DNA from: a virus | Lineage: Duplodnaviria > Heunggongvirae > Uroviricota > Caudoviricetes | Direction: 5' to 3' (one strand) | DNA length: 64,000 bases | Virus record (IMG/VR): IMGVR_UViG_3300035212_002004 | Coordinates: 40,100-104,099 of that record | In this document: positions 3,376 to 14,269 of the stretch, piece after piece | Position numbering within the stretch: the first letter of the stretch is position 1 | How the letters are laid out: each line of letters opens with the position of its first letter | Notes under the pieces: model-generated | Seen by the model: the letters and a program-made list of their open reading frames with translations, nothing else | Databases searched by the model: none | Told to the model about the DNA's origin: nothing | Made by a program: the position numbers and the translations under genes

Positions 3376-3771
3376 TTATTTATTTTTAATGATTTCTATT
3401 AATTTTTTAAGACATTCAAGTTCTGCTTCTTCGTAAGATTTAAAATCTGTTTCTAATTCAGATATTGATTGAGAATGATTTATTATTTGATAATCACAAT
3501 TAACATCATTTTCTAATGAATTGTCTAATCCTATTGAATGATATAAACCATACTTCTCTCTAAACCAACTAAATGCTTGTTGGTATAATGGTGCTGAAAC
3601 TACTATACTTGATGAATTGTGATTAAATAGAATTGGTTTAGGATTAATACAATCACTATTCATTATTGCATAATCACCTAACAATGGGTCAAAATATCCA
3701 AAACAAGGTTCATCAAATCCTAATTCTTTTAAAATTAATGCTTGTTCGTAAGGTGCAAATTCTTTTTCCAT
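3376..3771 (-). CDS. Hypothetical phage protein (paralogue of 651-1046)
   Basis: 131 aa; shared N-terminal and WFREK motifs. Confidence 0.8.
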   Translation of the reverse strand: MEKEFAPYEQALILKELGFDEPCFGYFDPLLGDYAIMNSDCINPKPILFNHNSSSIVVSAPLYQQAFSWFREKYGLYHSIGLDNSLENDVNCDYQIINHSQSISELETDFKSYEEAELECLKKLIEIIKNK

Positions 3772-3780
3772 AACTATTTT

Positions 3781-3823
3781 TTCTTATACTTTAATATACG
3801 AACTATATTTCTAATATCCAACT
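3781..3823 (-). promoter_or_regulatory. Bacteroidota-type (-33 TTG / -7 TAnnTTTG-like) early promoter, exact copy at 5898-5940
   Basis: Minus strand AGTTGGATATTAGAAATATAGTTCGTATATTAAAGTATAAGAA: TTG, 20 nt, TATATTAA; identical 43-bp copy at 5898-5940. Confidence 0.7.
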
Positions 3824-3828
3824 TTTTT

Positions 3829-4284
3829 TTAATCTATTTTTAAAGTAAGTATAATATAATCTGCCCATCCCATTTCATGTCCTTCTATATAGAAGTCGTC
3901 TTCTGGAAAGTAATGAGATAAGTCTGTATCCCATAACTGATCATATATTCCTTGCTTAAAGGTATCCATATCTGTTGGATAGATTTTAGGTACCATGCAT
4001 TCTAATTTTTCTGAGAGGTATTTTTTAGCAAGTTCATCATTTAGAGTTTTGTAAACTTCAAATGCTTCTTTACTATCGTCATTACCACCATTCCATTTGT
4101 AGGTTTTTAGCAATGCTTGTGATATCTGTTCATGTCTTTGTTTATCTTGTTCAGATATCTCTACAATGGTATGTGTTTTTAGAGCATCTGTAGATAGAGT
4201 TGGGAGAAATCTTCTAGTAATATATTCTCCTACGTAAAGTCCTAGCTGGTAGTTTAAGTCTTTTACATCAGGATCTCTTCTCAT
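3829..4284 (-). CDS. Hypothetical protein
   Basis: 151 aa ORF immediately downstream of the last tRNA. Confidence 0.75.
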   Translation of the reverse strand: MRRDPDVKDLNYQLGLYVGEYITRRFLPTLSTDALKTHTIVEISEQDKQRHEQISQALLKTYKWNGGNDDSKEAFEVYKTLNDELAKKYLSEKLECMVPKIYPTDMDTFKQGIYDQLWDTDLSHYFPEDDFYIEGHEMGWADYIILTLKID

Positions 4285-4314
4285 AACTTTTATTTTTTAT
4301 TGGATAAAATATTG

Positions 4315-4386
4315 TGGTCTCGGGGAATTACGATATCCCAGCCTCTTTCTTATGAGGAAATTGCTCTACCTTTGAGCTACGAGACC
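4315..4386 (-). tRNA. tRNA with CAT anticodon (elongator Met or Ile2), non-canonical T-loop
   Basis: Acceptor GGTCTCG/CGAGACC, D-arm GCTC/GAGC, loop CT-CAT-AA, T-loop ATCGTAA. Confidence 0.75.
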
Positions 4387-4392
4387 AATTAG

Positions 4393-4463
4393 TTGCGGAT
4401 TCAGGACTCGAACCTGGCCTCTGGGTTATGAGCCCGGAATGCTACCAATTACACCAAACCGCG
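4393..4463 (-). tRNA. tRNA-fMet (CAT)
   Basis: C1:A72 mismatch, three consecutive G-C pairs in the anticodon stem (GGG/CCC), loop CT-CAT-AA, TTCGAGT T-loop. Confidence 0.9.
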
Positions 4464-4564
4464 ATGTATGCTTTAATGAAAAGAGGTAAGCTACTTCAGT
4501 TATCTGCGTTTACTGAGTATTTAAAGCCGTCATTGGCAAAGTGGCTACTTACTTATTCATTTTG

Positions 4565-4635
4565 CGGTCTAGAACGGTAACGCTCCGTCTACTCAACAGT
4601 GACAGTGTTGGATGATACTTCTTCACTACTAGACC
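4565..4635 (-). tRNA. tRNA-Asp (GTC), non-canonical T-loop
   Basis: GGTCTAG/CTAGACC acceptor, G73, CAACA-CTGTCAC-TGTTG anticodon arm, T-loop AGCGTTA. Confidence 0.85.
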
Positions 4636-4639
4636 TTTT

Positions 4640-4714
4640 TGGTGGAGCTACCGAGATTCGAACTCGGAATAATAGAATGCAAATCTATCGTGATGCCAAT
4701 TTCACTATAGCCCC
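4640..4714 (-). tRNA. tRNA-Ala (TGC)
   Basis: G3:U70 pair, ATAGA-TTTGCAT-TCTAT arm, encoded CCA. Confidence 0.92.
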
Positions 4715-4720
4715 TTTTGT

Positions 4721-4790
4721 AGCCCTGCCGGGAGTCGAACCCGACTTTTATGGATGAAAACCATATGTCCTAACCGATAGACGACAGGGC
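4721..4790 (-). tRNA. tRNA-Glu (TTC)
   Basis: TATGG-TTTTCAT-CCATA arm, canonical T-arm. Confidence 0.9.
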
Positions 4791-4792
4791 CG

Positions 4793-4867
4793 TGGAGCAG
4801 ATGCGGAGAATCGAACTCCGATCTTCTGGTTGGAAGCCAAAAGTAATAACCATTATACGACATCTGC
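4793..4867 (-). tRNA. tRNA-Gly (TCC)
   Basis: GCAGATG/CATCTGC acceptor, loop CT-TCC-AA, encoded CCA. Confidence 0.92.
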
Positions 4868-4873
4868 ATTTTG

Positions 4874-4947
4874 AGGTTCTTGTCAGGATCGAACTGACTC
4901 TATTCAGCGTTACAAATGCTGTGCACCACCACTTATGCGTAAGAACC
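4874..4947 (-). tRNA. tRNA-Thr (TGT)
   Basis: GGTTCTT/AAGAACC acceptor, loop TT-TGT-AA, T-arm GTCAG-TTCGATC-CTGAC. Confidence 0.85.
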
Positions 4948-4953
4948 AAGTAA

Positions 4954-5020
4954 ATTACAGCCGGTTTTCGTATCCGTTCTCCTACTGCCAAGCAGGTGCT
5001 TTGCTATAAGCTAGCTGTAA
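4954..5020 (-). ncRNA. Degenerate tRNA-like RNA (6-nt anticodon loop TTGGCA)
   Basis: Perfect 7-bp acceptor TTACAGC/GCTGTAA, D-stem GCTT/AAGC, stem CCTGC/GTAGG with a 6-nt loop, degenerate T-arm CGGATACGAAAACCG. Confidence 0.55.
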
Positions 5021-5107
5021 CTTTTTTATGTAGGCGACTAGAACTCCAGTCCTTCTGTCCAATTAAGGAACTCATATCCGGTAACCCGGTCCTACTATAT
5101 TCTACTG

Positions 5108-5187
5108 TACCCAAGGGGGGAGTCGAACCCCCAAGCTTACGCCACGGCTTCTAAGACCGCTGTGTCTACCAGTTCCACCACTCGGGC
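5108..5187 (-). tRNA. tRNA-Leu (TAG)
   Basis: Loop CT-TAG-AA, Leu-type D-loop, variable arm, canonical T-arm. Confidence 0.92.
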
Positions 5188-5413
5188 ATTTACCGCATGT
5201 GCGGTCACTTATCAATCGGTAGCTCCCTCTTGATGTCCATCTGTGGGTGTAACACATTTGGTAGAGGGTCGAACCTTAAATATCGTATCATGAAGCATTT
5301 TTGATATTGTTGAATATGCTATATCCAACTTTCTTGCTTTTATGATTATAATTTCTTTATCTTTCATACTTAAATATACGAACTATATTTTTACTATCCT
5401 AGCTTTTTTTAAT

Positions 5414-5497
5414 TTACTTTTAATCTTAATTGCCATCATTTATTTTAATTCCAAAAAATATAAAGACTACAGCCACAATTATAAAACATACTATCAT
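5414..5497 (-). CDS. Possible small hydrophobic peptide (27 aa)
   Basis: MIVCFIIVAVVFIFFGIKIMMAIKIKK, a single TM-like segment between tRNAs; below the ORF-track cutoff. Confidence 0.35.
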
Positions 5498-5511
5498 AAT
5501 TTATTTTTTTG

Positions 5512-5584
5512 AGGGACTATAAAGAATCGAACTTTACAATCTATTCGTTTGCTGCGAATAAGCTTAACCATCAGCCTTAGTCCC
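5512..5584 (-). tRNA. tRNA-Cys (GCA) with A33
   Basis: GGGACTA/TAGTCCC acceptor, U73, anticodon loop CA-GCA-AA, canonical T-arm. Confidence 0.75.
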
Positions 5585-5663
5585 ATTTATCACCTAGCCT
5601 GACCTTCCAGACAGTACAAGTCAGTATTAATTTCACGTGCTGTTTTGTAGTAGGTGATTTATT

Positions 5664-5891
5664 TTATTTATTCAGATCTTGTATAATAGGTCCTAAATCT
5701 TTTACAGGTATCTTACAATCCTCTTGACCTTCTCCTTCTGAGTTTCTCCACATATAGTTGTAAACTGCTTTTGTTTTTCTTTCCATCTCAAATGTAAAGT
5801 ATAGGTTTGGAGTTTCTAATTCATATACATTCCAATCATCTCCTCTTCCGTCAGTATATTGATTTACTAATTTAAAATCTGTTATTTTCAT
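5664..5891 (-). CDS. Hypothetical protein
   Basis: 75 aa ORF directly behind the 5898-5940 promoter. Confidence 0.7.
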   Translation of the reverse strand: MKITDFKLVNQYTDGRGDDWNVYELETPNLYFTFEMERKTKAVYNYMWRNSEGEGQEDCKIPVKDLGPIIQDLNK

Positions 5892-5927
5892 ATTTCTTTC
5901 TTATACTTTAATATACGAACTATATTT

Positions 5928-6626
5928 CTAATATCCAACTATTTTGTTAGATTTTTTTAAATTATCTTTTTTCCACAATGGTTGATAATTACTATAATGA
6001 TTTAATCTTACAATATCTTCCTCTGTTTGAGCTGAAGAGATTGGTATTTTATGATCTAATTCCCATTGACCATAATTGTAAATAGTCATACCTTCTTGAA
6101 ATAAGTTCTGAATATGTTCTGTAAATTCTAATAGAGTGCATCCTAGTATTTCTTCAGTTCCTATACTTTTTCTATAAGTACCATTGCAGCTCCTTTTGAA
6201 TGAACCTCCTATTAAACTTCTTGTATTATATATTAATTTATAAATTGGATCTACTTTTTTTCGTTCCCTATGATAATTTACATAATATCCAGGATTCCTT
6301 TCATTCCAACTACTCTTTTTCTCTCTAGGTTTTTTAATAACCTCTTTTTTAGGTCTAGGATGAGTTTTATAGTACTCTCTTTGCCTTAACTTTATCTCCT
6401 CTTTATTTTGTTGGTAATTTAACCTATCTCTTTCTCTTTGCTTATCCCTATTAGCATCTCTATACTCTTCTCCATATTTTTGTAGAGATTCTTTATTATC
6501 CTCTTTCCATCTTGCAGTTTCTATTTTTCTACAAGCTCTGCAGGTATAGTCGTAGTTATTAAATACAGATTTTGATATGTTAATTCCTACTTCTAATTCT
6601 ACTTTACACTTTATACACTCTTTCAT
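5928..6626 (-). CDS. HNH-type putative homing endonuclease
   Basis: N-terminal CxxC..CxxC; C-terminal GCT..F..HI...GMT..NYG.WELDHKIP...NYQPLW..DN..KSNK; paralogue of 18754-19425 and 54541-55089. Confidence 0.85.
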   Translation of the reverse strand: MKECIKCKVELEVGINISKSVFNNYDYTCRACRKIETARWKEDNKESLQKYGEEYRDANRDKQRERDRLNYQQNKEEIKLRQREYYKTHPRPKKEVIKKPREKKSSWNERNPGYYVNYHRERKKVDPIYKLIYNTRSLIGGSFKRSCNGTYRKSIGTEEILGCTLLEFTEHIQNLFQEGMTIYNYGQWELDHKIPISSAQTEEDIVRLNHYSNYQPLWKKDNLKKSNKIVGY

Positions 6627-6637
6627 ATTAAAATAAA

Positions 6638-6733
6638 AGGAGAAATTAAAGAAAACACATGGTACGTGCTAAGCTCTAAAATCTCCTATAATGTTTTTAT
6701 TGAACAGTACCATTGTTCATTTAATATAAATAT
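6638..6733 (-). promoter_or_regulatory. Structured 5' leader (two hairpins with complementary 7-nt loops) plus ATATTTAT motif
   Basis: Minus strand TGAACA-ATGGTAC-TGTTCA and AGGAGA...AGCAC-GTACCAT-GTGTT...TCTCCT just before the ATG. Confidence 0.6.
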
Positions 6734-6763
6734 CACAAAATATAGGAAACCTTAATATATTTT

Positions 6764-7270
6764 TTAAAAGAATAGGAAAGCTTCCCATTCCTTAGGTACA
6801 TAGTTTAAGGTTTTTAAGAGCATTAGGTAATGAGGTCTTTTTGGTTCTGGAATTTCCTTTCCATATTCCTCAAGAGTTAAATCTGCTTTAGCTCCATTAC
6901 AAGATCTACATGCTGTTACTAAATTGTCCCAAGCATTTTCTCCACCTTTTGATTGTGGAATGACATGGTCAAGTGTTAATGACTTTATGTTACTTGATCC
7001 GCAATAAACACATTCATAATTATCCCTTCGATAAACATTTTCTCTCGTTAGAGGAACTTTTTGAATGTTTTGTTTTACATATTTAAAAACCCTAATGATT
7101 GAAGGTTTAAAAATTTCTAGTTTTGGATTTACTAATCCGAATGTTTCTGGATGTTCAGCTATTATTTCTGCATTACCCTTATACGAAATCACGAAAGCTC
7201 TTTCGGTAGAGATGATGCTTCTTGCCATAAAGCTTGAATCAATTACCAGTGTTCTTTGGTACTTACTCAT
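6764..7270 (-). CDS. HNH endonuclease (McrA-like), inside the tRNA array
   Basis: RENVYRRDNYECVYCG...LTLDHVIPQSKGG...NLVTACRSCNGAK; likely start MSKYQR at 7270 (ORF track starts at 7294). Confidence 0.88.
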   Translation of the reverse strand: MSKYQRTLVIDSSFMARSIISTERAFVISYKGNAEIIAEHPETFGLVNPKLEIFKPSIIRVFKYVKQNIQKVPLTRENVYRRDNYECVYCGSSNIKSLTLDHVIPQSKGGENAWDNLVTACRSCNGAKADLTLEEYGKEIPEPKRPHYLMLLKTLNYVPKEWEAFLFF

Positions 7271-7303
7271 GATTTTAATTTTTAAATGAAACAATTTATT
7301 TTG

Positions 7304-7374
7304 CGCAGGCCGTAAGAATCGAACTTACCCGTAGCAGTTTTGGAGACCGTACCGACACCTTGTCTGTGACCTGC
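7304..7374 (-). tRNA. tRNA-Trp (CCA)
   Basis: GCAGGTC/GGCCTGC acceptor, loop CT-CCA-AA, short D-arm. Confidence 0.85.
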
Positions 7375-7468
7375 ATTTGTAGAGTATCGCTTACTCTACC
7401 AAAGTTGATCAGACTTCTTTAATAGCTCTTTAAGTTGTTACCATCTGTCTATCCATGCGATTTTTTTG

Positions 7469-7541
7469 TACCCCTAGAAGAATTCGAATCTCCATTTTAC
7501 ATCTTAGAAGGATGTTGCATTTCCATTTATGCTATAAGGGC
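7469..7541 (-). tRNA. tRNA-Arg (TCT)
   Basis: ACATC-CTTCTAA-GATGT arm. Confidence 0.9.
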
Positions 7542-7547
7542 ATTTTG

Positions 7548-7619
7548 AGGTCCTACCAGAACTCGAATCTGGATTCTATCGTTCGTAGCGATAAGTTTTT
7601 CCAATTAAACTATAAGACC
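7548..7619 (-). tRNA. tRNA-Arg (ACG)
   Basis: TATCG-CTACGAA-CGATA arm. Confidence 0.92.
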
Positions 7620-7686
7620 AGACTGTAGGATATCGCTTAACCTACGAAGTTGATCACACTTCTTTTCTATACGAACGATTTTTTTG

Positions 7687-7759
7687 TATCCCTGACTGGA
7701 GTCGAACCAGCAGCTTACGAGGCTTAAACTCGTTGTGTTTACCATTTCACCACAGGGAT
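7687..7759 (-). tRNA. tRNA-Leu (TAA) lacking the long variable arm
   Basis: ATCCCTG/CAGGGAT acceptor, A73, ACGAG-TTTAAGC-CTCGT arm, variable region only AAGCT. Confidence 0.8.
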
Positions 7760-7854
7760 GTAAAGCCAATCCCGTAGATTGGCAGCTCAACTTTAGGCAT
7801 TGAGTTTGCAAGAACTAGTCTCTGGCCAAGTCAATCTCCCTTTGGGAGTTGTCG

Positions 7855-7927
7855 TGTGAAAGGTGGGACTCGAACCCACAATCTCCTGAATCACAATCAG
7901 ACGCTTTACCATTCAGCTACAATCACC
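7855..7927 (-). tRNA. tRNA-His (GTG)
   Basis: Extra 5' G(-1), loop TT-GTG-AT, canonical T-arm; position 73 reads A. Confidence 0.88.
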
Positions 7928-7934
7928 ATGTTAG

Positions 7935-8003
7935 TACCGAGTGTTGGATTCGAACCAACCTAAGGGCGGATATGAGCCATCCTTGATCCCAAGCTCCCTC
8001 GGT
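7935..8003 (-). tRNA. tRNA with CAT anticodon (elongator Met or Ile2), short D-arm
   Basis: ACCGAG/CTCGGT acceptor, loop CT-CAT-AT, T-arm GTTGG-TTCGAAT-CCAAC. Confidence 0.7.
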
Positions 8004-8008
8004 AATTA

Positions 8009-8073
8009 AAAGTAACGTAGGACTCGAACCTACTCATGCCAAGTTAATAGCAATTATCCACCATGCATTACTT
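8009..8073 (-). ncRNA. Degenerate tRNA-like RNA
   Basis: 7-bp acceptor AAGTAAT/GTTACTT and canonical T-arm GTAGG-TTCGAGT-CCTAC; anticodon stem TGCTA/TGGCA closes a 6-nt loop TTAACT; no clear D-arm. Confidence 0.55.
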
Positions 8074-8076
8074 TTG

Positions 8077-8159
8077 AGGAAAGAATGAGAATCGAACTCA
8101 ATCCAATTACGAACGTCTCGCTTAGCAGGCGGACTCAACACCATGTTGATTTACTTTCC
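8077..8159 (-). tRNA. tRNA-Ser (GCT)
   Basis: Loop CT-GCT-AA, long variable region, canonical T-arm. Confidence 0.85.
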
Positions 8160-8165
8160 ATTTTG

Positions 8166-8237
8166 TACTCCTAGGAAGAATTGAACTTCCATTTCATCCT
8201 TATCAGAGATGTGTGCTAACCATTCTACTATAGGAGC
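8166..8237 (-). tRNA. tRNA-Ile (GAT)
   Basis: CATCT-CTGATAA-GGATG arm. Confidence 0.92.
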
Positions 8238-8359
8238 AATTTGTAACGTTTAATCTGATAACCTTACGAAGAGTTGTTCCTTATTAATCCAATTGTAATG
8301 TTAGTTGTTGGAGGGAAAGTTACACATCTAAACCCGTCAGGAGATACTAACACCCCTTG

Positions 8360-8431
8360 CTCCTCCCCTAGGACTCGAACCTAGATAAGATGATTAACAG
8401 TCATCCGTAATAACCTTTATACGAGAGAGGA
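8360..8431 (-). tRNA. tRNA-Asn (GTT)
   Basis: GATGA-CTGTTAA-TCATC arm, G73. Confidence 0.92.
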
Positions 8432-8437
8432 ATTTTG

Positions 8438-8606
8438 AGCCACATAACAGGAATCGAACCTGTCTGCTGAATCTTGTCAAATACTCTCATCTTGTCGACC
8501 TTTCAGAGGCATATTCTATTTAACCCTTTATGATCTTCCACCCTACGTCTAGGACAGTCCATACATAATTGACTAAAAGATCCAGTCGTCACCGTTGACT
8601 ATGGAC
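8438..8606 (-). ncRNA. tRNA-shaped RNA with a ~100-nt insertion in the anticodon loop
   Basis: D-stem GTC/GAC, anticodon-type stem GGATCTT/AAGATTC, 5-nt variable loop, canonical T-arm ACAGG-TTCGATT-CCTGT, bulged acceptor, 3' N73-CA like neighbouring tRNAs. Confidence 0.65.
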
Positions 8607-8613
8607 TTGTTTG

Positions 8614-8686
8614 TGGACCCTGTAGGAATCGAACCTACTCCTCTAGTTCTTCAGACTAGCGTACGCACCAGCTATACCAAAGGTCC
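8614..8686 (-). tRNA. tRNA-Phe (GAA)
   Basis: CTAGT-CTGAAGA-ACTAG arm. Confidence 0.92.
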
Positions 8687-8699
8687 AAGGTTAATAAAG

Positions 8700-8770
8700 T
8701 GGGGCCAGTAGGAATCGAACCTACCCAGTGAGCTTTTACAGAGCTGCTCGGCACCTTGCCTGTTGTCCCC
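8700..8770 (-). tRNA. tRNA-Tyr (GTA) lacking the long variable arm
   Basis: Loop CT-GTA-AA, G1:C72, A73, variable region only 5 nt. Confidence 0.8.
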
Positions 8771-8816
8771 AATTACACTTTCCAATTAAATCTGTATAAG
8801 TGTGAAACCCTCTTCG

Positions 8817-8887
8817 TACCTCGTAGTGGAATCGAACCACTGCCATTTCCATGTAAAAGAAATACGCTTCCATTACGCCAACGAGGC
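8817..8887 (-). tRNA. tRNA-Val (TAC)
   Basis: TTTCT-TTTACAT-GGAAA arm, canonical T-arm. Confidence 0.9.
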
Positions 8888-8934
8888 AAATGCACTTCCT
8901 GTTCTCTACGGTATAGTATAGTGCTAACCATTTG

Positions 8935-9005
8935 TACCCCCTGAAGGTAATGCTCCTTCTTCCCGATATTAAAAGTATCGTGCTTCACTTTAAAGCCTAG
9001 AGGGC
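8935..9005 (-). tRNA. tRNA-Lys (TTT), non-canonical T-loop
   Basis: CGATA-CTTTTAA-TATCG arm; T-arm GAAGG-AGCATTA-CCTTC. Confidence 0.85.
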
Positions 9006-9068
9006 AAATTTAATTCTATGCGTCGGTGCTTATTAGGCGGTGATCTATGAATTAGTAACAGTCTCTCG

Positions 9069-9139
9069 TCTAATAGTTAGGATTCGAACCTAAGTACTGC
9101 TCAGTCCAAGTGAGCCATGAAACCGTGCTTCGCTACTAG
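9069..9139 (-). tRNA. tRNA-Pro (TGG)
   Basis: C1:G72, GCTCA-CTTGGAC-TGAGC arm, canonical T-arm. Confidence 0.88.
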
Positions 9140-9150
9140 AAATTTATTTG

Positions 9151-9221
9151 TTGCCCATGAAGGTAACGCTCCTTCTCCGCATGTGTCAAAGACATGTGTA
9201 CTACTTTTATACGAACGGGCA
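9151..9221 (-). tRNA. tRNA-Gln (TTG), non-canonical T-loop
   Basis: TGCCCGT/ATGGGCA acceptor, CATGT-CTTTGAC-ACATG arm, T-loop AGCGTTA. Confidence 0.85.
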
Positions 9222-9226
9222 CAATG

Positions 9227-9667
9227 CTATTTTAAATTATGTTTTATTTTTAATCTATGGACTCTATTGTAATTATCACCTTTTGGAGATAAACCAGCAT
9301 CTCTTAATATGTCAGCTATACTTCCTCCTTTTTTTATAGATTCAATTAATACATCTTCATGCACCCATTTAGTATGGGTTTCTTTTTTATAGTTTTTAGA
9401 TCTAAAAGTTGATGTTTGTGAATGACAATTAGGACACATATATCTTAAATTCCCTCTAGTATTATTATGTTTATCACCATCTATATGGTCTAATTCTAAT
9501 AAAAGAGGTTTTTCATTCCATTCTTCTAATATTCCACATTCTACACATTTAGGTTCTCCTAACCATTTATCTTTTTTTAACCAGTCTCTAAAAGCAGGAA
9601 CAAATGTTATTGTCATTTCCCCATTTAATATTTTTTCAATATTATTTTTAATATCAGTACGTTTCAT
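9227..9667 (-). CDS. HNH endonuclease inside the tRNA array
   Basis: CVECG...LELDHIDGDKHNN...NLRYMCPNCHSQT; likely start MKRTDIK at 9667 after an ATATTTAT motif (the ORF-track start at 9751 lies inside tRNA-Ser). Confidence 0.88.
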   Translation of the reverse strand: MKRTDIKNNIEKILNGEMTITFVPAFRDWLKKDKWLGEPKCVECGILEEWNEKPLLLELDHIDGDKHNNTRGNLRYMCPNCHSQTSTFRSKNYKKETHTKWVHEDVLIESIKKGGSIADILRDAGLSPKGDNYNRVHRLKIKHNLK

Positions 9668-9726
9668 ATAATATATTTGATAATAAATATTACATCGTCT
9701 TAAAGACTTAAACATACTTTTAATAG

Positions 9727-9810
9727 AAGAGAGTGTGGGACTCGAACCCACAACGGTTTAACCCGCTACGACTTTTCAAGAGTCGCTCTTGATCCAGCCA
9801 GATACTCTCC
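9727..9810 (-). tRNA. tRNA-Ser (TGA)
   Basis: CGACT-CTTGAAA-AGTCG arm, long variable arm GCGGGTTAAACCGT. Confidence 0.9.
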
Positions 9811-9898
9811 ATCTTATTCTATCCAATATGTCAATGAACTACTTATTTTTCTTATGCTTCAATATACGAACCCTTTTTACGGTATCCAAATCTTTTGT

Positions 9899-9931
9899 AA
9901 AAAAAACTCGAATCTTTTTATTTGATCCGAG
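9899..9931 (-). terminator. Intrinsic terminator
   Basis: CTCGGATC-AAATAAAAA-GATTCGAG hairpin followed by T8. Confidence 0.75.
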
Positions 9932-9965
9932 TTTCTTATTAGAATTTATATGTTATATCTCTATA

Positions 9966-10100
9966 TCATACCTCGGTACCACCTTGTTTCGGTTCATTAT
10001 TATATGTAAAGCCAATGACAAAATCATTCCATAACGAACTGGCTGACATTGTCAGTGATCTCGAGGCTTGATGTTGTTGTATGTTTTGAATTTGTATCAT
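9966..10100 (-). CDS. Putative Gln-rich leader peptide (44 aa)
   Basis: MIQIQNIQQHQASRSLTMSASSLWNDFVIGFTYNNEPKQGGTEV; 5 CAA codons in the first 11; ATATTTAT motif at 10117-10124 upstream, terminator downstream. Confidence 0.55.
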   Translation of the reverse strand: MIQIQNIQQHQASRSLTMSASSLWNDFVIGFTYNNEPKQGGTEV

Positions 10101-10153
10101 TTTGTTTTATGTGATTATAAATATATATAAGGAATAGAAACCTTGAATTATTT

Positions 10154-10414
10154 TTACCCTTTTAATAATTTTTTCTTATCTTTACTTTTAGCTAACCTAC
10201 TATCTAGGTACTGAATGGTGTCTACATGAAGTCTGTCAGTTCGATCTATTTCTTGATCAATTCTACGATTCACTAATTCATCATTTTTGTAAAGGGTATT
10301 AATAATCTCTGTTTCATTACCTTTTAAAGCAGTTACTTGCTTTGATACCTTGTTTAGTTTTACTCCTTGGTAAACTAAGGTGATAATTGCTGCACCTAAT
10401 AAAAATTCTGTCAT
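10154..10414 (-). CDS. Hypothetical protein, N-terminal TM plus coiled coil
   Basis: 86 aa ORF. Confidence 0.7.
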   Translation of the reverse strand: MTEFLLGAAIITLVYQGVKLNKVSKQVTALKGNETEIINTLYKNDELVNRRIDQEIDRTDRLHVDTIQYLDSRLAKSKDKKKLLKG

Positions 10415-10436
10415 AATAATTTGATTTTAGAATTAG

Positions 10437-10535
10437 AGCTAAGGCCGGACTCGAACCGGATACCGTTTCATTTAAAACGGACTAGACAACCATTTGACTG
10501 GATTCGGAAACCATTCCTCATTACGCCCACTTAGC
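10437..10535 (-). ncRNA. tRNA-like RNA (99 nt) without a canonical anticodon arm
   Basis: Acceptor GCTAAG/CTTAGC, T-arm CCGG-TTCGAGT-CCGG, three small internal hairpins. Confidence 0.6.
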
Positions 10536-10540
10536 TTTTT

Positions 10541-10627
10541 GGAATCGGTGAGGGATTCGAACCCTCATCTGGACTTACCGTCCATGTTAACCCTAGCAGG
10601 TATGCTCCTGTTGACACCAACCGATTC
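10541..10627 (-). ncRNA. tRNA-like RNA (87 nt), 8-bp acceptor, long variable arm, poorly paired anticodon arm
   Basis: GAATCGGT/ACCGATTC, T-arm GAGGG-TTCGAAT-CCCTC, variable arm TGGAC-GGTAA-GTCCA, CT-GCT-AG loop without a proper stem. Confidence 0.6.
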
Positions 10628-10632
10628 TTTTT

Positions 10633-10790
10633 TTACCAACCTTGGTCTTTCTTGTAGCCTTCCGAGTTATCAGTTACGGGGCTTGTACAAGATCAGGGTT
10701 TCTGATTAATGATTTGCTTGTACTCTAGATTACTATAAACCCTTTTTCATCCGTTTAGCATCATCATTAATTAACAGCGAGCATTGGTAA
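10633..10790 (-). ncRNA. Candidate pseudoknotted ncRNA (~160 nt)
   Basis: Closing stem TTACCAA/TTGGTAA; interleaved stems TTAATGAT/ATCATTAA and AGGGTTT/AAACCCT. Confidence 0.5.
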
Positions 10791-10794
10791 TTTG

Positions 10795-10899
10795 TAGTCA
10801 GGACAGGAATCGAACCTGTATACCTCGTTTATCTGTTGGAACGAGTACTCCCAATGGTTGCGACCCATACACTGCGTTTCCCATTTTCGCCACCTGACT
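10795..10899 (-). ncRNA. tRNA-like RNA (105 nt) with extended anticodon and variable arms
   Basis: AGTCAGG/CCTGACT acceptor, A73, D-stem GCG/CGC, ATGG-GTCGCAA-CCAT hairpin, CTCGTT/AACGAG arm, canonical T-arm. Confidence 0.65.
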
Positions 10900-11024
10900 A
10901 TTTTATAAAACATTCCAGCCACATTGGGAGAGCCGCAGTTCCCACGTTGTTTAAAGACTTTCTTGGCGGACCTATCTACTGGGGTGTGTTTTACTTATAC
11001 TTAAATATACGAACTTTAGTTTAA

Positions 11025-11312
11025 TTATCCAACTTCTTTGGACATTTTTTCTAACATTTCGTAAGTTTTTTCAAAAATATCTGGTTTACATGGATAAAAT
11101 TCTCCTTGTACTCCTTTTATGATAAAATCACCTACACTAGCTGTCATATCTCCTTCTAGAGTTTCGATTGTAATTTTTCCTGATGGATTACCTTCTTCAG
11201 GACTTGTTTTAGTCCTGATTGAGGTTTTCATAAATTCAGCTATTTCTCCTTGATTTGTTCCATCCCATCGAACTGCTTCAATTACAACTGGTTTCTTTCT
11301 GTAGAGAGCCAT
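11025..11312 (-). CDS. Conserved phage protein (YRKKPVVIEA...TLEG...GDFII.G..GEFYPCKPDIF type)
   Basis: Recognisable motif pattern of a common small phage protein; function unknown. Confidence 0.8.
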   Translation of the reverse strand: MALYRKKPVVIEAVRWDGTNQGEIAEFMKTSIRTKTSPEEGNPSGKITIETLEGDMTASVGDFIIKGVQGEFYPCKPDIFEKTYEMLEKMSKEVG

Positions 11313-11710
11313 TAAAAACTTACTGTTGAAAGTACTTTAATAATAGTAAATTCAGGATCAAAATCTTTGTCTAATTGTTTTGCAACTAATAAATCGATTG
11401 ATGTTCCGTTTTTTTGCTCAACCCATAACTCTTTTACAAATTCTGAAGATGTTACTTCATTTTTGTCGTTTCTTCCTACTGTAAATACAGCTACTTTTAC
11501 TTGTTTGCTCATGTTTTTTATTGGTGTTACGGCTGTTGATAAGCCTAAATTATTTGAATAATTAATTGTTGAATTTCCTGATAGGGTTAATCCTGAATTG
11601 GGGTGGGATACTGTAAGTATTGAGTTAGGATTAGTACATCCCATTCCTATTGTTCCTGAGTATCCAACTGTTGTTCCGGTTGTTCCTAGCCAACTTTGTG
11701 TTTCGTTCAT
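11312..11710 (-). CDS. Hypothetical protein
   Basis: 132 aa ORF overlapping its neighbours by 1-4 nt. Confidence 0.7.
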   Translation of the reverse strand: MNETQSWLGTTGTTVGYSGTIGMGCTNPNSILTVSHPNSGLTLSGNSTINYSNNLGLSTAVTPIKNMSKQVKVAVFTVGRNDKNEVTSSEFVKELWVEQKNGTSIDLLVAKQLDKDFDPEFTIIKVLSTVSF

Positions 11711-12138
11711 AATTTTAGATAATCTTTTAAATTAATATTTTGTGTTTTTTCTTGATAATGAAAATCTGTATGGCAATTTCTACAAAGCACTTTACATTTC
11801 CGTATTTCAGTTTTAATAATATTTAAAGTGTAAGTTTTAAAATATGGTAAAGCATGTTCTTTAGTATCAGGATCTATATGGTGAAAATCTAAAACCCAAA
11901 ATCTTTTTTCTCCACATTTTTGGCACCCACAATACTTTTTGTACCTATTCATAAATTCTTGACCTCTATTATAACTCTTTTTACTAGCCTTTATTTGATA
12001 CTTTTTATAAACATCACTATTAGCTTTATTATGTATAGCATTATAAGAATGTTGACATAATTTACATTTACCTCCACCTTTATAAAAATCGGTTAATGGT
12101 TTAGTTTCATTACAAGAAGGGCATTTTTTATTATTCAT
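11707..12138 (-). CDS. HNH-type putative homing endonuclease
   Basis: CPSC..CKLC zinc ribbon; CGCQKCG...LDFHHIDP...KCKVLCRNCH. Confidence 0.82.
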   Translation of the reverse strand: MNNKKCPSCNETKPLTDFYKGGGKCKLCQHSYNAIHNKANSDVYKKYQIKASKKSYNRGQEFMNRYKKYCGCQKCGEKRFWVLDFHHIDPDTKEHALPYFKTYTLNIIKTEIRKCKVLCRNCHTDFHYQEKTQNINLKDYLKL

Positions 12139-12150
12139 AATTTACATTTT

Positions 12151-12183
12151 AGGTCCGGTTATAAATATTAAGAAACCGGACCT
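12151..12183 (-). terminator. Hairpin after queC with the ATATTTAT motif in its loop
   Basis: AGGTCCGGTT/AACCGGACCT 10-bp stem; loop contains ATATTTAT (12161-12168). Confidence 0.55.
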
Positions 12184-12191
12184 TTTGTAAA

Positions 12192-13067
12192 TTATTTTAT
12201 ATGGTTTTCTAAAACTTGAGCAACATGATCCCTAGCAATTTCCCAACTTACAGGACCTTCTTCAAGGTTCGCATAAGCAACTGGATCTTTTCTTCCTAGT
12301 TTAATAAATGCTTCGATACGTTCTACTGAAGATGCTGATTTATAATCTGAGAACCATTCTCCTGTCCAAACATTAAATTCTTTACCTGGGAATTGTCCTT
12401 CTTTCCAGGGTTTATATCCCTCAATCCAAATTGGCTTATAAGAAGTATTAGTTCTCGAATAAACTTCATCAAAATCTAATCCTAATTCTCTACACAATAC
12501 CTCTCCATCTTTTAAGATATCGAATTTATCTCCTTCTAAATAAGGTGTAAAATAACCTACTCTTTCAGCTTCCCAATTTCCTAATCTAAAAGCTGTATCA
12601 TCAGCATCTCTAAACTCTTGTCTACAATCAGGATAAATTGCATGATCACCAGCATGAATACCTAAAGCAATATCACAAGTTTCTCCTGTTCTATTTGCAA
12701 CTGATAAAGCTACTGCTTGAGAAATTGAAGCAAATATTTTGTTTCTATTAGGAACAACTGTTGCTTTCATATTATCTTCTGCATAATGACCTTCAGGTAC
12801 ATCTTCACCTCCTGTTACTAAAGCTGAATCTAATAAATCAACTAATCCATCTAGTTTAATTTGACGATAACGTAATTCAGTCTGTGATGATGATTCCTCT
12901 CCAATATAGTTTACTAAGGATTGAGCTCTCTCTAGCTCTACTCTGTGTTTTTGACCGTAATCAAAGCTAATAGCAGTGACTGTGTCATACTCTTTTAGAC
13001 ATCTAAGCAATAATGTGCTTGAGTCCATTCCTCCACTTAAGGATACTACAACATGTTTTTTAGACAT
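12192..13067 (-). CDS. queC: 7-cyano-7-deazaguanine synthase QueC
   Basis: SGGMDS PP-loop, FDYGQKH, VPNRN, GIHAGDHAIYPDCR motifs. Confidence 0.93.
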   Translation of the reverse strand: MSKKHVVVSLSGGMDSSTLLLRCLKEYDTVTAISFDYGQKHRVELERAQSLVNYIGEESSSQTELRYRQIKLDGLVDLLDSALVTGGEDVPEGHYAEDNMKATVVPNRNKIFASISQAVALSVANRTGETCDIALGIHAGDHAIYPDCRQEFRDADDTAFRLGNWEAERVGYFTPYLEGDKFDILKDGEVLCRELGLDFDEVYSRTNTSYKPIWIEGYKPWKEGQFPGKEFNVWTGEWFSDYKSASSVERIEAFIKLGRKDPVAYANLEEGPVSWEIARDHVAQVLENHIK

Positions 13068-13115
13068 AATTTATAATTTAATTTGTGCCAGGTATTTGAA
13101 ACGTATAGGCAAACG

Positions 13116-13340
13116 TTATTTTTGTTCTCCGTTGTAAATTTTCTTTCCAAAATATTCATCAAGAAATTCTCTACGATAAAGTTTTACTTTACCTGTGTAT
13201 TTAGGATTTGACACTTCTTGTTCTTGAATAGTTTCTCTTAATTTAACAGCAACTTCTGCTACTTCTTTTCCTAATTCTGATCCTGCGGCTCTGCCTAGAT
13301 ACTCATAAAGAGACATCATGTACAGTTTTTGTGCTTCCAT
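13116..13340 (-). CDS. Hypothetical protein
   Basis: 74 aa ORF between queC and the TGT-like gene. Confidence 0.7.
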   Translation of the reverse strand: MEAQKLYMMSLYEYLGRAAGSELGKEVAEVAVKLRETIQEQEVSNPKYTGKVKLYRREFLDEYFGKKIYNGEQK

Positions 13341-13474
13341 AACTCTATTTTTGTTTTAGTTTTTTTAATCCCCAAGGATGATAAATTATTTCAAAGGTTT
13401 CAGTATCATATTGGGCCATTCTTTGAAATCCATACCCAAATATTCTTAATATGGGGTTTACAAACTGGGCTAAC

Positions 13475-14269
13475 TTATATTTTACCATTATTACAAAATT
13501 CTTTAAATTTATTTACATTAAATATAATATCTTCTAATTGAGAAGACAAATCTTTTTCCATAAACTCTTCAATTTTATTTGATGGTTTTTCTAATAAACC
13601 TATGTCAGTATATCTTTTACCTAAAGCCCCACAAATAATTGGATTTGAAGTATCAACTGAATTAATTAAATTAGGTTGAGCGTCTCTATAGTAAGTAAAT
13701 TCTTGAGGTGTTGATGCTCCTAATAAATGAATATAATGATGATCTTTTATTACATTTTGAGATAATAAAAATTGAATTAATAATACTCTACCAACAGATT
13801 GATTAGCTAGTACATTTTCAGAACCACCTAATTCTTGATATACAACAGAAGAATGGTTAAAAGCAAAATGAGTATAGCCTAAATCAACACATTGTTGATA
13901 TAGAGTATGAATTTCACTTACCGTTTTTCCCTGCAATACAACCATTAATTTAGTTTTAAATGGTAGTTTATATTGGGTCCAATGTTTTGCGTTTTTAGCT
14001 GTAAGATCACGTTCATTCCACTCATCAGGTACAATAAATATATTTGGTTCAATTAGATTTATTTTTTCTAATAAATCTTTAGTAGTATGTGAATATCCTT
14101 CAAATAAAGAGTTATCCATAATAATAAATCTATCTCTTTCTTTTTGATCTAAAAAATACTGTCTATATTCTGGGTACTTATCCATAAAAATAGGGAGACA
14201 ATAATCAAAATCTGACCATTCATTATTGTACTCAAATAAAGAGATTGGAACTTCATGTGAAATTTTCAT
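13475..14269 (-). CDS. TGT-fold protein, candidate DpdA-like 7-deazaguanine transglycosylase
   Basis: IIMDNS, IHLLGA and SVDTS motifs match the order of TGT-family DSG, HLxG and DS motifs; adjacent to queC. Confidence 0.6.
   Translation of the reverse strand: MKISHEVPISLFEYNNEWSDFDYCLPIFMDKYPEYRQYFLDQKERDRFIIMDNSLFEGYSHTTKDLLEKINLIEPNIFIVPDEWNERDLTAKNAKHWTQYKLPFKTKLMVVLQGKTVSEIHTLYQQCVDLGYTHFAFNHSSVVYQELGGSENVLANQSVGRVLLIQFLLSQNVIKDHHYIHLLGASTPQEFTYYRDAQPNLINSVDTSNPIICGALGKRYTDIGLLEKPSNKIEEFMEKDLSSQLEDIIFNVNKFKEFCNNGKI

Follow-up and report, generated by a model that had tools for sequence, protein, structure and literature searches.

Organization of the locus

The window, by which we mean the whole 64-kb stretch of DNA analysed here, is derived from a 168-kb virus record with direct terminal repeats, the closest isolates of which are Flavobacterium phages with protein identities of about 30–35 %. 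A long tRNA array, detected with ARAGORN and Rfam, lies on the minus strand, and a small ORF followed by a terminator is present on the same strand; the 168-kb genome has one copy each of this ORF and of the terminator. The features of this region, in their order along the minus strand, are as follows.

10124..10117, minus strand: ATATTTAT, a promoter-like motif that precedes the ORF start by 16 nt and is nearly invariant in homologue alignment A2
10100..9966, minus strand: small ORF of 44 codons plus stop (stop codon at 9968..9966), a member of a family of 44–51 codons
10068..10094, minus strand: codons 3–11 of the ORF, a G-free, A/C-rich stretch with five CAA (Gln) codons
10062..10066, minus strand: segment 1, which pairs with segment 2 in the window
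9971..9980, minus strand: segment 2, made up of the final ORF codons and proposed as the 5' strand of an antiterminator (P1); its duplex with the terminator 5' arm has a predicted energy of −9.2 kcal/mol in the window
9935..9970, minus strand: spacer including the stop codon and two small hairpins, P2 (the stop-codon hairpin) and P3, which are predicted in most homologues
9899..9934, minus strand: intrinsic terminator, with its 5' arm at 9934..9924, a 9-nt loop, its 3' arm at 9914..9904 and eight T residues at 9906..9899
9890..9861, minus strand: second promoter-like motif (TTTG, about 20 nt, then a TAnnTT box), between the terminator and tRNA-Ser and conserved there in homologues
9726..9810, minus strand: tRNA-Ser(UGA), the first gene of the main array and the nearest gene 3' of the ORF in nearly all homologous loci
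9667..9227, minus strand: HNH endonuclease ORF, assigned by Pfam and PHROG searches, between tRNA-Ser and tRNA-Gln in the window
9151..9221, minus strand: tRNA-Gln(UUG), the second tRNA of the array, missed by ARAGORN and found as an Rfam tRNA match of 42 bits, the TTG anticodon being read from the sequence

The structural elements reported in the initial annotation were readily located. The ATATTTAT motif is present at 10117–10124 on the minus strand; the ORF has 44 codons, with CAA at five of the first 11 (codons 3, 5, 8, 9 and 11) and ATA twice (codons 2 and 7); and the strong intrinsic terminator described after the ORF stop is there as an 11-bp stem followed by eight T residues. The four short segments that had been proposed to form alternative pairings, CCTCG (10066..10062), CCGAGG (9976..9971), CTCGG (9931..9927) and TCGAG (9911..9907), lie at exactly these positions.

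Downstream of the ORF the order in the window is terminator, promoter-like motif, tRNA-Ser(UGA), the HNH ORF, tRNA-Gln(UUG), tRNA-Pro and the remaining array. In nearly all relatives tRNA-Gln follows tRNA-Ser after only about 5 nt, and the HNH gene thus looks like a recent insertion into the array. In most loci tRNA-Ser(UGA) and then tRNA-Gln(UUG) come within about 50–250 nt of the ORF; a few loci have them further away, at distances of about 660 nt at most. Just 5' of tRNA-Ser, a 20-nt block (9820–9839, minus strand) is invariant in all six sequences of alignment A1; it includes TTGACA, without a matching −10 box, and may be a 5'-leader processing or recognition element.

The earlier placement of the ORF upstream of the tRNA array stands in so far as the ORF precedes the main array in homologous loci, but tRNA-like genes are also found upstream of it (10795–10899), and the ORF is thus better described as the head of the main array than as preceding all tRNA-like genes. 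The upstream genes are non-canonical tRNA-like RNAs at 10431–10899 (minus strand), among them a 105-nt Rfam tRNA match at 10795–10899 (minus strand), with T-arm-like ends near 10440 and 10560; odd tRNA calls of 86–94 nt are located at the equivalent place in relatives (L087, 7736–7822; L044, 4628–4714). An 86-aa ORF, also upstream of the leader ORF, matches Flavobacterium phage vB_FspM_immuto weakly.

Two classes of promoter-like motif

The sequence ATATTTAT occurs 38 times in the window against 20.7 occurrences expected, and 33 of these copies are on the gene strand. Twenty-seven of the 33 are intergenic, in a window of which intergenic DNA makes up 13 %, and they are mostly situated 13–30 nt before ORF starts. 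Judged by this distribution, ATATTTAT is a genuine recurrent promoter-like signal of the phage.

A promoter belonging to the array itself had also been suggested at about 9860–9890, and the motif there indeed proves to be recurrent. The 11-nt core GTTCGTATATT of this TTTG-N20-TAnnTT motif has five gene-strand copies against 1.6 expected (at 3793, 5373, 5910, 9861 and 11004, minus strand), all of them within the tRNA region. The GTTCGTATATT-type motif represents a second class of promoter, separate from the ATATTTAT type that precedes most protein genes. Since such a motif stands between the terminator and tRNA-Ser, expression of the tRNAs need not depend on read-through from the ORF.

The leader ORF and its family

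The first homologous loci were reached through a neighbouring 95-aa ORF; a search for related loci with the 86-aa upstream ORF gave no match. In all, 79 distinct intact DNA versions of the ORF were gathered by an ORF-derived DNA pattern, a peptide-profile scan and a metagenome scan, and a profile search of a protein database (E≤1e-3) returned 241 protein clusters, all unannotated. All members are from uncultured phages. The DNA-pattern scans demand an exact match to the core and so bias conservation in the core, though not in the tail or in the terminator arm. Neither the 44-aa peptide (tblastn) nor the region (blastn) has a homologue in the isolate phage collection, no Pfam or PHROGs family matches the peptide, and AlphaFold2 with the family alignment gave no confident fold for it (pLDDT 55).

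None of the 79 versions is interrupted and every indel observed is a multiple of three. The pN/pS ratio is 0.41 in the core, which runs from a conserved W to an EPK motif, 0.98 in the N-terminal third and 1.09 in the last five to six codons. On these comparative measures the ORF is coding and its peptide core is under purifying selection; the tail, with its pN/pS of 1.09, is not constrained as protein. The peptide may act in trans as a small protein, or through a nascent-peptide effect. Enrichment of the ORF in NAN-box codons, those of nuclease-targeted tRNAs, was considered and discarded, their rough share of about 37 % being ordinary for an AT-rich phage.

The homologues have the same layout, namely a ATATTTAT-type promoter, the ORF, the terminator, the second promoter-like motif, tRNA-Ser(UGA), tRNA-Gln(UUG), tRNA-Pro and the remaining array, and across the loci compared the position of the element before the tRNA array is fixed. 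Two family members, P0096 and L176:1-100, have altered ORF ends: one is without the stop codon and is extended by 11 codons into the spacer, and the other, a divergent member, has a longer tail, whose complement to the arm is a different 6-nt stretch situated 12–20 nt ahead of the stop codon.

The terminator and an alternative pairing with the end of the ORF

Folded alone, the 11-bp terminator stem has a predicted energy of −11.8 kcal/mol. A simple terminator scan missed the hairpin because its 9-nt loop exceeds the 8-nt limit of that scan. RNAalifold recovers the terminator, with compensatory changes at three pairs, it is present in the full-length minimum free energy (MFE) structure of 76 of 78 versions, and the spacing between the stop codon and its 5' arm is 31–37 nt across the family. 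By these criteria the terminator is real and covaries among homologues. The 236-nt region as a whole folds better than its shuffles (z=−4.8), and a cmscan of positions 3500–13500 against Rfam (E≤1) gave no match within 9895–10130. RNAalifold also drew an invariant long-range helix inside the ORF; this helix does not covary, is disrupted in the window and was dropped as evidence.

The 5' arm of the terminator has a second potential partner in the last codons of the ORF. The ORF tail is complementary to the arm in all 78 of the versions that possess a terminator, and tails and arms change together, such that distinct peptide tails accompany distinct arms. The main combinations are as follows.

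Tail CCGAG with arm CTCGG: 14 versions; 5 bp, Watson–Crick
Tail CCGGG with arm CCCGG: 28 versions; 5 bp, Watson–Crick
Tail CCGGG with arm CTCGG: 9 versions; 5 bp, with G–U
DTDLG-type 8-nt tail with its own arm variant: 12 versions; 8 bp (−11 to −14 kcal/mol) in 11 of the 12
Tail CCGAG with arm CCCGG or CCCGA and a palindromic GGTACC flank: 11 versions; the flank restores 6 bp
Tail CCGAG with arm CCCGG and no GGTACC flank: 0 versions; an A–C mismatch would result

The CCCAA arm is seen in five versions, in each case together with the sole tail that it can bind, and the rarer tails of L061, L083 and L176 attain complementarity through yet other sequences. One tail and arm version has a G-to-A change in the arm that gives eight Watson–Crick pairs with the tail (−13.9 kcal/mol), but an A–C mismatch in the terminator stem.

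Several controls bear on the specificity of this match. When arms were permuted among tails, the native mean duplex energy was reached in none of 5000 permutations; native tails bind the arm better than shuffled tails do (mean z about −3); and the best arm-binding site in the whole mRNA is the tail in 31 of 36 versions. When transcripts were truncated ahead of the 3' arm, their MFE structures had the 5' arm bound to the tail in 33 of 36 versions, and then in 70 of 78. In a fixed register, 80.5 % of cells are paired against 26–47 % with the partner slid, and there is covariation at the central P1 pair. The predicted folds have P1 closing a three-way junction with the stop-codon hairpin (P2) and the small second hairpin (P3).

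RNAalifold gave no consensus for the region cut before the 3' arm on a MAFFT sequence alignment, because the pairing register differs between tail types. The evidence for P1 is combinatorial, made up of per-sequence folding and duplex statistics in place of a clean column-wise covariation test, and the versions are related and recombining, so that the counts given here overstate the number of independent events. P1 has just 5 bp in the commonest type, leaving the loop-proximal part of the arm free, and in the window it is absent from the unconstrained MFE structure.

The mutually exclusive 2:3 and 3:4 pairings that had been proposed from the window sequence are thus conserved and covary among the 79 distinct homologues, and where compensatory changes were sought, the 2:3 matching of tail and arm was found to be kept through several different sequence solutions. 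Taken as a comparative result, a conserved antiterminator/terminator alternative exists, and it is probable that this alternative pairing is under selection.

A possible ribosome-dependent switch

We tentatively propose that the element heading the phage tRNA array is a ribosome-dependent transcription attenuator, our confidence in the full translation-sensing model stopping a little short of even. Transcription would start from the ATATTTAT-type promoter and the short ORF would be translated, and segment 2, the last 8–10 nt of the ORF, would pair with the terminator 5' arm about 35 nt downstream to give the antiterminator P1. A leading ribosome that keeps pace with RNA polymerase and stands on the last codons or the stop codon would cover segment 2, such that the terminator forms and the transcript ends. 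With a ribosome that is late, or stalled upstream, segment 2 would capture the 5' arm first and the polymerase would pass through the second promoter and on into tRNA-Ser, tRNA-Gln, tRNA-Pro and the rest of the array. Slow translation would in this way lead to more tRNA synthesis, a feedback on translational capacity, and the signal sensed would probably be general decoding speed. The stop-codon hairpin might, by analogy with the trp and his leaders, provide a pause that synchronizes ribosome and polymerase.

The geometry of the element is in keeping with such a role. Segment 2 ends 1–5 nt before the stop codon and the arm lies 31–37 nt further on, outside the ribosome footprint; because segment 2 directly precedes the stop codon, ribosome position should decide which pairing forms. 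In folding calculations with a ribosome footprint masked at the stop, the arm–tail pairing was lost in six of six versions, and masks placed upstream left the pairing in place. The terminator hairpin is 8–13 kcal/mol more favourable than the antiterminator state, and a conserved P1 thus makes sense only as a co-transcriptional competitor. We infer that ribosome position would decide between termination and read-through, and that read-through would matter for tRNA levels.

A natural variant is found on one contig (L087:8119-8240 and L136). Its terminator has no 3' arm and no T-run, the second promoter motif is likewise missing, and the ORF and 5' arm lead straight into tRNA-like sequence. With the 3' arm and the second promoter missing, the ORF transcript must run into the tRNAs, and to judge from this arrangement co-transcription of ORF and tRNAs is tolerated.

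Another reading is that the ORF is a small phage gene of the ordinary kind, with a promoter and a terminator of its own. The terminator would serve to insulate the tRNA promoter from upstream transcription, and tail–arm complementarity would be without regulatory significance, reflecting linked GC-rich neighbours or a minor effect on mRNA folding or stability. The purifying selection on the peptide core and the 241 clusters of fixed length are what would be expected of such a gene, as are a promoter at the canonical distance before the ORF and an efficient-looking terminator that is followed by a separate promoter-like motif; moreover, only some 45 nt separate the tail from the arm, and as a rule the two are inherited as a unit. 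We nevertheless consider this explanation unlikely, because several sequence solutions each keep at least 5 bp and incompatible combinations of tail and arm are absent, the permutation and shuffle controls favour the native pairings, and the tail, free as protein, yet stays complementary to the arm. Furthermore, P1 loses to the terminator in the finished RNA, so that its conservation is sensible only during transcription.

An antiterminator controlled by a ligand or a protein, independently of translation, would have the P1–P2–P3 junction as something like an aptamer and the overlap with the ORF end as incidental; a factor that stabilizes the junction would sequester the terminator arm, in the manner of ON riboswitches. 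The arrangement does resemble that of expression platforms whose terminator and P1 have the 3' strand of P1 in common, and P2 and P3 are maintained despite differing spacer sequences. We regard this as improbable, since the junction has no conserved unpaired nucleotides and its spacers, which are AU-rich, fall into three unrelated types, Rfam has no family that matches the region, and the stop codon always comes right behind segment 2.

Glutamine codons and the upstream pairing

The initial annotation had envisaged a glutamine-specific attenuator of four segments, in which a ribosome stalled at CAA codons, when tRNA-Gln is depleted or cleaved, would mask segment 1, free segment 2 and block the terminator, and so induce the array that includes tRNA-Gln(UUG). 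For the window sequence this logic works in silico: without a ribosome, segment 1 holds segment 2 and the arm is left unpaired by the tail; when a ribosome has its A site at codon 11, all 8 of the 8 arm nucleotides pair with the tail; and a ribosome at the stop frees the arm again. The 1:2 element on which the scheme depends is not family-wide, however. Segment 2 has a probability of upstream pairing of 0.76 in the window and 0.83 in L104, and of about 0–0.5 in the other 34 of 35 homologues, and even the closest ORF variants show no conservation of segment 1. A trp-like 1:2 anti-antiterminator, absent or inconsistent in those 34 of 35 homologues, was accordingly rejected as a feature of the family, and the match in the window, a single 5–6-nt complement within 100 nt, could easily be due to chance.

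The CAA run fares similarly. Glutamine is enriched in the first 11 codons family-wide, with one to five residues among the 79 versions, usually two or three and with a mode of three; only Gln5 and Gln9 are near-invariant. Five such residues are seen in just four of the 79 versions, and the window, being one of these, is at the extreme of the family. No conserved regulatory codon cluster was found among the family, the Gln positions being variable and no other codon run being present, and because the CAA run is not conserved, glutamine-specific sensing is left without comparative support. In hosts that do not use Shine–Dalgarno sequences an unstructured initiation region would look G-free and A/C-rich, and selection for such a region may just as well lie behind the similar composition at the start of the ORF.

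Glutamine-specific control is thus highly improbable. In its favour are the switch of the window fold when the A site is at codon 11, the near-invariance of Gln5 and Gln9, and the presence of tRNA-Gln(UUG) as the second gene downstream. Against it, the glutamine count varies with the window at one extreme, segment 1 is not conserved, the N-terminal codons may have another explanation, and in the absence of segment 1 any upstream codon would serve equally well as the site of a stall.

Comparison with known systems

The E. coli trpL, hisL, pheL and leuL attenuators share with the phage element a short ORF followed by a terminator whose 5' arm can pair beside the leader stop, and they share the proposed logic, in which a ribosome at the stop leads to termination and a lagging ribosome to read-through. 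The phage element differs in having neither a conserved regulatory codon run nor a conserved 1:2 pairing; its ORF of 44–51 codons has a core conserved at the protein level, which classical leader peptides do not; and it is phage-encoded, with tRNAs rather than biosynthetic enzymes downstream and a promoter-like motif intervening. It is almost, if not quite, an even question whether the element works like a ribosome-mediated attenuator, and as one it would fail two classical features, the regulatory codon run and the 1:2 anti-antiterminator.

In the pheM leader of pheST, ribosome-mediated attenuation feeds back on the supply of a decoding component. Its signal is a single charged tRNA, read by way of Phe codons, and its target is a synthetase, whereas in the phage element no one class of codons stands out and the targets would be tRNA genes. 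The tnaC and speFL leaders resemble the phage ORF in that a short ORF has a conserved peptide near its C terminus and occupancy of the stop could decide downstream transcription, but they block Rho-dependent termination, and the phage element has an intrinsic terminator with an RNA alternative. Peptide-mediated stalling in the phage ORF is pure speculation. ON riboswitches such as the pbuE adenine riboswitch have in common with the phage element a three-way junction where one and the same strand forms the 3' side of P1 and the 5' arm of the terminator; the phage element differs from these in having no conserved ligand-binding core or Rfam match, and the 5' strand of its P1 is coding.

Implications for phage tRNA arrays

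In searches of the literature we found no case of phage tRNA genes under leader-peptide control. The arrays themselves have been explained either as codon compensation or as a means of replacing host tRNAs that are destroyed by defence nucleases (PMC10264068, PMC11464382). Following the translation-sensing reading further, a lineage of large, uncultured, mostly freshwater phages might use a dedicated sensor ORF for decoding speed, the slowing of which, for example through depletion of host tRNAs or their cleavage by tRNA-targeting defence systems, would bring about read-through into the near-complete tRNA set of the phage itself; we hold this joint reading to be possible, if doubtful. The many natural sequence variants of the family ease the design of compensatory-mutation experiments.

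If true, this would be the first known case of an attenuator acting on tRNA genes, and of any regulatory input to a phage tRNA array. It would also bring a new class of targets, and phages of Bacteroidota-like hosts, within the reach of ribosome-mediated attenuation. An attenuator at the head of the array would link decoding capacity directly to tRNA supply.
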